From NCBI RefSeq assembly GCF_003334815.1, contig NZ_QOWO01000001.1: a stretch of DNA of 64,000 nt; one strand, written 5' to 3'. Shown here piece after piece: positions 20,660-20,780 of the stretch (position 1 is the first letter of the stretch; the number at the start of each line of letters is the position of its first letter). Under the pieces are notes generated by a model, which was given only the letters and a program-made list of their open reading frames with translations, did no database searches and had not been told where the DNA came from. Made by a program: the position numbers and the translations under genes. The DNA comes from Escherichia coli (GTDB lineage: Bacteria > Pseudomonadota > Gammaproteobacteria > Enterobacterales > Enterobacteriaceae).

Positions 20660-20780
20660 GTGCGGCCTGAAAAACAGTGCTGTGCCCTTGTAACTCATCA
20701 TAATAATTTACGGCGCAGCCAAGATTTCCCTGGTGTTGGCGCAGTATTCGCGCACCCCGGTCTAGCCGGGGTCATTTTTT
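20660..20780 (+). ncRNA. arcZ: Hfq-dependent small RNA ArcZ (RyhA/SraH)
   Basis: Sequence gtgcggcctgaaaaacagtgc ... gcgcaccccggtctagccggggtcatttttt matches recalled ArcZ including its terminator; 3' end overlaps the arcB stop convergently. Confidence 0.85.

Follow-up and report, generated by a model that had tools for sequence, protein, structure and literature searches.

The 64,000-nucleotide stretch of Escherichia coli DNA analysed here (the window) almost certainly carries on its plus strand, at 20660–20780, the gene for ArcZ, an Hfq-dependent small RNA (sRNA), which is flanked by elbB and arcB and reads towards the latter. The gene ends convergently on the stop codon of arcB, which coincides with the 3′ edge of the ArcZ terminator stem, and the same juxtaposition of stop codon and terminator recurs across the order Enterobacterales. 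The arrangement is already known, and the feature is ArcZ itself rather than a relative of it.

Compared over its full length with Rfam, the window gave a match to the ArcZ family (RF00081) at 20660–20767 on the plus strand, with a score of 120.8 bits (E = 4e-27) against a gathering score of 66 bits and with model positions 1–106 of 106 covered. A first-pass annotation had named this gene ArcZ and proposed alignment to an ArcZ reference as the way to refute the name; the name stands, and the coordinates proposed with it are exactly those onto which arcZ of K-12 MG1655 (b4450; 3350577–3350697, plus strand) maps. The 249 bases from 20552 to 20800 are 100% identical to K-12 MG1655 and likewise to strain E2865, and of the 5426 complete E. 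coli genomes, 5417 contain a 261-nt stretch around arcZ, which is at least 99% identical in 5362. Since the window is identical to MG1655 from position 1 to position 31070, the arcZ locus is intact, as had been supposed; arcB is full-length. With K-12 ArcZ (SraH/RyhA) the gene shares its sequence, position, neighbours elbB and arcB and 121-nt extent, as well as the core following the RNase E site, the terminator and the 9-nt overlap with arcB. All features that define the ArcZ sRNA (RF00081) at the level of sequence are present, and no evidence contradicting the identification was found.

The convergent partner is arcB, again in line with the first-pass annotation. Its product corresponds to the NCBIfam equivalog NF008302 with 1483.1 bits (curated cut-off, 838 bits), residues 1–778 aligning to profile positions 1–779, and the MG1655 gene (b3210; 3350689–3353025, minus strand) maps onto the open reading frame (ORF) given in Table 1. 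Equivalog matches and the K-12 annotation place arcB on one side of arcZ and elbB on the other; on the minus strand arcB is followed by elbB and mtgA, both identified by their NCBIfam equivalogs. A start at 20551 gives elbB its longest ORF (220 aa), while the start annotated in both K-12 and RefSeq is at 20542 (217 aa). Read between 20540 and 20800, the region comprises the start of elbB, an AT-rich spacer and then the sequence GTGCGGCCTG...CACCCCGGTCTAGCCGGGGTCATTTTTTAG. The neighbourhood of arcZ and arcB is not peculiar to E. coli, arcB being found next to arcZ also in 119 of the 120 loci listed from other species.

Table 1. Features of the elbB–arcZ–arcB region of the window, with the basis of each assignment.
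Feature	Position	Strand	Basis
elbB, flanking arcZ on its 5′ side, same strand as arcB	19889–20542	-	NF008747, 357 bits; K-12 annotation
arcZ upstream (promoter) region, elbB–arcZ spacer	20552–20659	+	transcription start at 20660 taken from the K-12 arcZ feature
arcZ, full-length 121-nt sRNA gene	20660–20780	+	RF00081 match; K-12 MG1655 arcZ (b4450) mapped
5′ stem-loop of full-length ArcZ (arms 20679–20686 and 20712–20719)	20679–20719	+	Rfam alignment structure line
Putative processed 56-nt active ArcZ	20725–20780	+	coordinates inferred from the sequence and PMC11331407
Conserved core/seed region, CCCTGGTGTTGGCGCA	20728–20743	+	exact occurrence in the window
Terminator stem-loop, ACCCCGGT-CTA-GCCGGGGT	20754–20772	+	terminator scan; -13.9 kcal/mol
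ArcZ terminator U-tract, complement of the two C-terminal Lys codons of arcB	20775–20780	+	sequence; translation ...ATKK-stop
arcZ/arcB feature overlap, 9 nt, TCATTTTTT / AAAAAATGA	20772–20780	.	mapped K-12 annotation and sequence
arcB, sensor histidine kinase, 778 aa	20772–23108	-	ORF list; NF008302; K-12 annotation

Upstream of the gene, a TATCTT hexamer recognized by eye at 20648–20653, 7 nt from the start at 20660, may serve as the promoter element; a scan for consensus sigma-70 promoters upstream of arcZ gave no site at its thresholds. The same region contains TTAAC/GTAAC-like repeats, again picked out by eye, which are 12–15 bp apart instead of the 11 bp expected for an ArcA site and are not taken to mark one. 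Phosphorylated ArcA (ArcA-P) is described as a repressor of the arcZ promoter (PMC11331407).

Within the transcript, the RNase E consensus RN↓WUU is reported to stand directly before CCCUGGUGUUGGCGCA, the 56-nt product being the 3′ end of ArcZ (PMC11331407). The window agrees with this consensus, as it reads GA↓UUU followed by the core at 20728–20743, and we would accordingly place the cut between 20724 and 20725. Binding of ArcZ to Hfq is taken from the same source. The Rfam model contains in addition a second helix, which falls at 20732–20756 on the plus strand and has GCGCACC (20750–20756) as its 3′ arm. This arm and the 5′ arm of the terminator (20754–20772) share the bases ACC, so that the outer three pairs of helix 2 and the terminator are mutually exclusive.

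At the junction of the two genes, ccccggtctagccgggg occupies 20755–20771 and is followed by tca (20772–20774) and tttttt (20775–20780). With its closing A-U pair the stem-loop has eight pairs and a loop of 3 nt. The minus-strand ORF translates into an ArcB C-terminus of ...WVAKATKK, followed by a TGA stop that is the complement of 20772–20774, whereas the two AAA lysine codons are the complement of 20775–20780. The arcB frame ends at 20772, and ArcZ is therefore perfectly complementary over its final 9 nt to the arcB stop codon together with these two codons. The window thus has 6 coding nucleotides plus the 3 of the stop in common with ArcZ, which matches the account of the overlap in the literature. 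The first-pass annotation had described the terminator hairpin as covering the last arcB codons and the two 3′ ends as complementary. The former holds for the U-tail (on the two lysine codons) and for the closing U with the CA spacer (together the stop codon), but not for the G+C stem (20755–20771), which lies just outside the arcB reading frame. The latter holds for the 9 nt shared by the arcZ feature and the arcB coding sequence including its stop; how far the complementarity of the two RNAs extends past them depends on the position at which the arcB mRNA ends. The description of the whole as the usual ArcZ/arcB arrangement was correct, the literature presenting it as normal and the K-12 annotation being the same.

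The terminator scan found one site, compared with 0.7 ± 0.9 in shuffled sequences, which is not significant by itself. As this result did not exceed the shuffled background, the hairpin was tested by comparison with other species. Contigs representing one genome per species were scanned with a 22-mer of the ArcZ core, which gave at least 120 loci from many genera of Enterobacterales, including Escherichia, Salmonella, Citrobacter, Enterobacter, Klebsiella, Yersinia, Erwinia, Rahnella, Photorhabdus, Xenorhabdus, Proteus and Providencia. The sample consists of genomes that keep the exact 22-mer, and its species are phylogenetically related. The resulting alignment (A2) holds 105 sequences, 104 of them distinct; as the core belonged to the search pattern, its invariance in A2 is partly a product of construction. 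Among the 104 distinct sequences, the seven stem pairs that align consistently are paired in 99.7% of cells, and two of them covary, switching among G-C, A-U and G-U with 43 double changes. None of 500 shuffles reached either the observed paired fraction or the observed covariation score, and sliding the stem partner by a single column lowered pairing to about 60%. It follows that selection acts on the terminator stem as a structure. The evidence beyond chance is provided by the Rfam score, the presence of the stretch in E. coli genomes and the covariation of the stem across genera.

The triplet between the stem and the U-tract (20772–20774; columns 55–57 of A2) is invariant in form, reading U-(C/U)-A in 104 of 104 sequences. 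It is kept in Pantoea and Mixta as well, where it no longer corresponds to the arcB stop codon. Its invariance may reflect a requirement of the ArcZ 3′ end or simply inheritance.

In order to place the end of arcB relative to the stem, the ArcB C-terminus was located in each locus by tblastn and the frame was read on to the stop codon. No ArcB C-terminus could be detected in one of the 120 loci listed (L061), so that 119 could be scored. The 3′ edge of the terminator stem coincides with the arcB stop in 100 of the 119, with an overlap of 9–11 nt as computed from the distance between the end of the T-run and the stop codon. In 97 loci the arrangement is the same as in E. coli, the first plus-strand base of the stop being the last base of the extended stem (the corresponding class in our script has 98 members, since it counts the window itself), and in two more (L004 and L103) it is E. 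coli-like with the hairpin call one or two bases off. The tally agrees with the account of the arrangement in a 2024 review.

The juxtaposition has been lost in a few lineages. In 12 loci of Pantoea and Mixta (L015, L026, L028, L031, L033, L043, L058, L070, L071, L083, L108 and L121) the arcB stop is displaced from the stem by a further 10–21 nt, with an overlap between 2 nt and none, and in five loci of Morganella (L019 and L066), Pluralibacter and one other Enterobacteriaceae isolate (the Pluralibacter-like loci L045, L051 and L068) the overlap is 2 nt. Taken together, these Pantoea, Mixta, Morganella and Pluralibacter-like loci have arcB ending 6–21 nt further from the stem, and their ArcB tails are not Lys-Lys, the ending found in 101 of the 120 sequences scored, window included. 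As ArcZ is retained in Pantoea, Mixta, Morganella and Pluralibacter with an overlap of 2 nt or less, overlap with the coding sequence is not required for the existence of ArcZ. Three further loci have aberrant arcB ends, with the stop far from its usual place, which may be due to frameshifts or assembly errors; they come from Pantoea sp. 1.19 (L021), Kluyvera genomosp. 3 (L078) and Serratia sp. M24T3 (L101).

These comparisons bear on which of the two genes is constrained by the overlap. That it is the ArcZ 3′ end, rather than arcB, is a reading we put forward tentatively and consider somewhat doubtful. It is suggested by the U-(C/U)-A triplet, which is invariant even where it is not the arcB stop, by the fact that ArcB ends in Lys-Lys wherever its frame enters the U-tract and otherwise elsewhere, and by the hairpin, which in every case is devoid of a U-tract on the arcB side. 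If it were true, the C-terminal residues of a sensor kinase, together with its stop codon, would be dictated by the terminator of an antisense sRNA.

The overlap has also to be weighed against mere compaction of the genome, with the hairpin acting as a bidirectional terminator shared by the two genes and the complementarity having no regulatory role. The stem is indeed close to a palindrome and can fold on either strand (-13.9 and -12.7 kcal/mol), an A-run precedes the hairpin on the arcB strand, as is typical of two-way terminators, and some lineages without overlap of the coding sequence still keep ArcZ. However, the sequence that comes after the hairpin on the arcB strand, GCGCGAAUACUG, contains no U-tract, and the terminator scan found no minus-strand terminator in 20400–21000. 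In all species sampled this downstream tail consists of the invariant ArcZ core, and the hairpin is therefore nowhere a canonical two-way terminator. Furthermore, secondary sources state that ArcZ lowers arcB mRNA and that arcB mRNA lowers ArcZ (PMC11331407, PMC4152358, PMC3937726, PMC4281340). We consider compaction devoid of a regulatory role improbable, and a bidirectional intrinsic terminator of the canonical type was rejected, the U-tract being confined to the arcZ strand. The resemblance to such terminators lies in the single G+C hairpin between convergent units, bordered by an A-run at one end and a T-run at the opposite end, and the difference in the arcB-strand side, which is devoid of a U-tract. 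Only with respect to arcZ does the hairpin qualify as a canonical terminator.

The end of the arcB mRNA itself may be set by termination at the hairpin only, by Rho, by processing or by read-through towards elbB. A literature search on arcZ together with bidirectional terminators, made for maps of the arcB 3′ end, found nothing relevant. As the shared hairpin is never accompanied by a U-tract on the side of arcB, transcription of arcB may routinely continue across the ArcZ seed in antisense orientation, in which case the duplex would be much longer than the 9–11 nt usually quoted.

A small protein encoded by the ATG-initiated 62-codon ORF at 20594–20782 on the plus strand, whether instead of or besides the non-coding RNA, can practically be dismissed, because this ORF begins 66 nt before the point at which arcZ transcription is annotated to start, its frame is open upstream of the core for a median of only 10.5 codons among the 118 other loci listed (the 44 codons needed are reached in 8 of the 118, no better than in the other two frames), and the pattern of conservation, an invariant core with a covarying stem, is that of an RNA. 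The ORF was rejected as a coding candidate, as its conservation does not reach past close relatives, and it is probably without significance.

With the preferred reading, that of an ArcZ gene whose 3′ end is antisense to that of arcB, the published observations can be combined into the following scheme. The 121-nt primary transcript ends at the intrinsic terminator formed by the stem-loop (20754–20772), the CA spacer and the U-tract (20775–20780), and RNase E cuts it, as described in the literature, to the 56-nt 3′ fragment, here presumably 20725–20780. The 5′ seed of this fragment, CCCUGGUGUUGGCGCA, is described as pairing in trans with the mRNAs of rpoS, flhDC, mutS, tpx, sdaC and others. 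Any 3′ UTR of arcB is antisense to the rest of ArcZ. In published work the geometry of the overlap is reported to support a mutual repression of ArcZ and arcB, in which ArcB, through ArcA-P, represses arcZ transcription, arcB mRNA lowers ArcZ and ArcZ destabilises arcB mRNA. According to three sources (PMC11331407, PMC4152358, PMC3937726), arcB mRNA is proposed to serve as an antisense transcript against ArcZ and ArcZ lowers arcB mRNA, the two forming a mutual negative loop. A fourth, citing Mandin & Gottesman 2010, has ArcZ binding the arcB 3′ UTR including 6 nt of coding sequence before the stop (PMC4281340). The regulatory effect of an arcZ/arcB duplex is attributed to Mandin & Gottesman 2010 as cited in PMC11331407, PMC4152358, PMC3937726 and PMC4281340.

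Among other known systems, the geometry resembles that of GadY and gadX, where a cis-encoded sRNA is likewise transcribed against a convergent regulator gene, whose 3′ UTR it overlaps (PMC4152358). The effect of GadY on its target is one of stabilisation, by way of RNase III processing and mainly in cis, whereas ArcZ is chiefly trans-acting, Hfq-dependent and processed by RNase E, and is reported to destabilise arcB mRNA (PMC4152358, PMC11331407, PMC3937726). Both the overlap, given as about ten bases, and the repression of ArcZ and arcB by each other have already been published. What is added here is small: the tally of the stop/stem juxtaposition, which gives a quantitative complement to qualitative statements in reviews, the naming of the lineages in which it has been lost, the U-(C/U)-A form of the spacer, invariant even where this is no stop codon, and the lack of an arcB-strand U-tract in all species sampled. 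The value for the window is one of annotation, in that the arcZ-arcB module, through which the sensing of oxygen is connected with the RpoS stress response, is present, intact and identical to that of K-12.

The arcZ-arcB region shows no difference from K-12, and the window departs from MG1655 only farther away. Three single-nucleotide differences from MG1655 are found at 31071, 31903 and 33429. The window does not contain the 1199-bp IS5R insertion (IS5 plus a 4-bp duplication) that splits yhcE in MG1655, the junction lying at 35638/35639. The strain is thus closely related to K-12 but is not MG1655 itself. Two Rfam naRNA4 matches of the REP/BIME type occur on the minus strand at 61013–61082 and 61104–61173 (77.3 and 65.1 bits, respectively), approximately in the tldD-yhdP spacer, and an indel relative to MG1655 begins at about 61157, which suggests that the number of REP units differs between the two.
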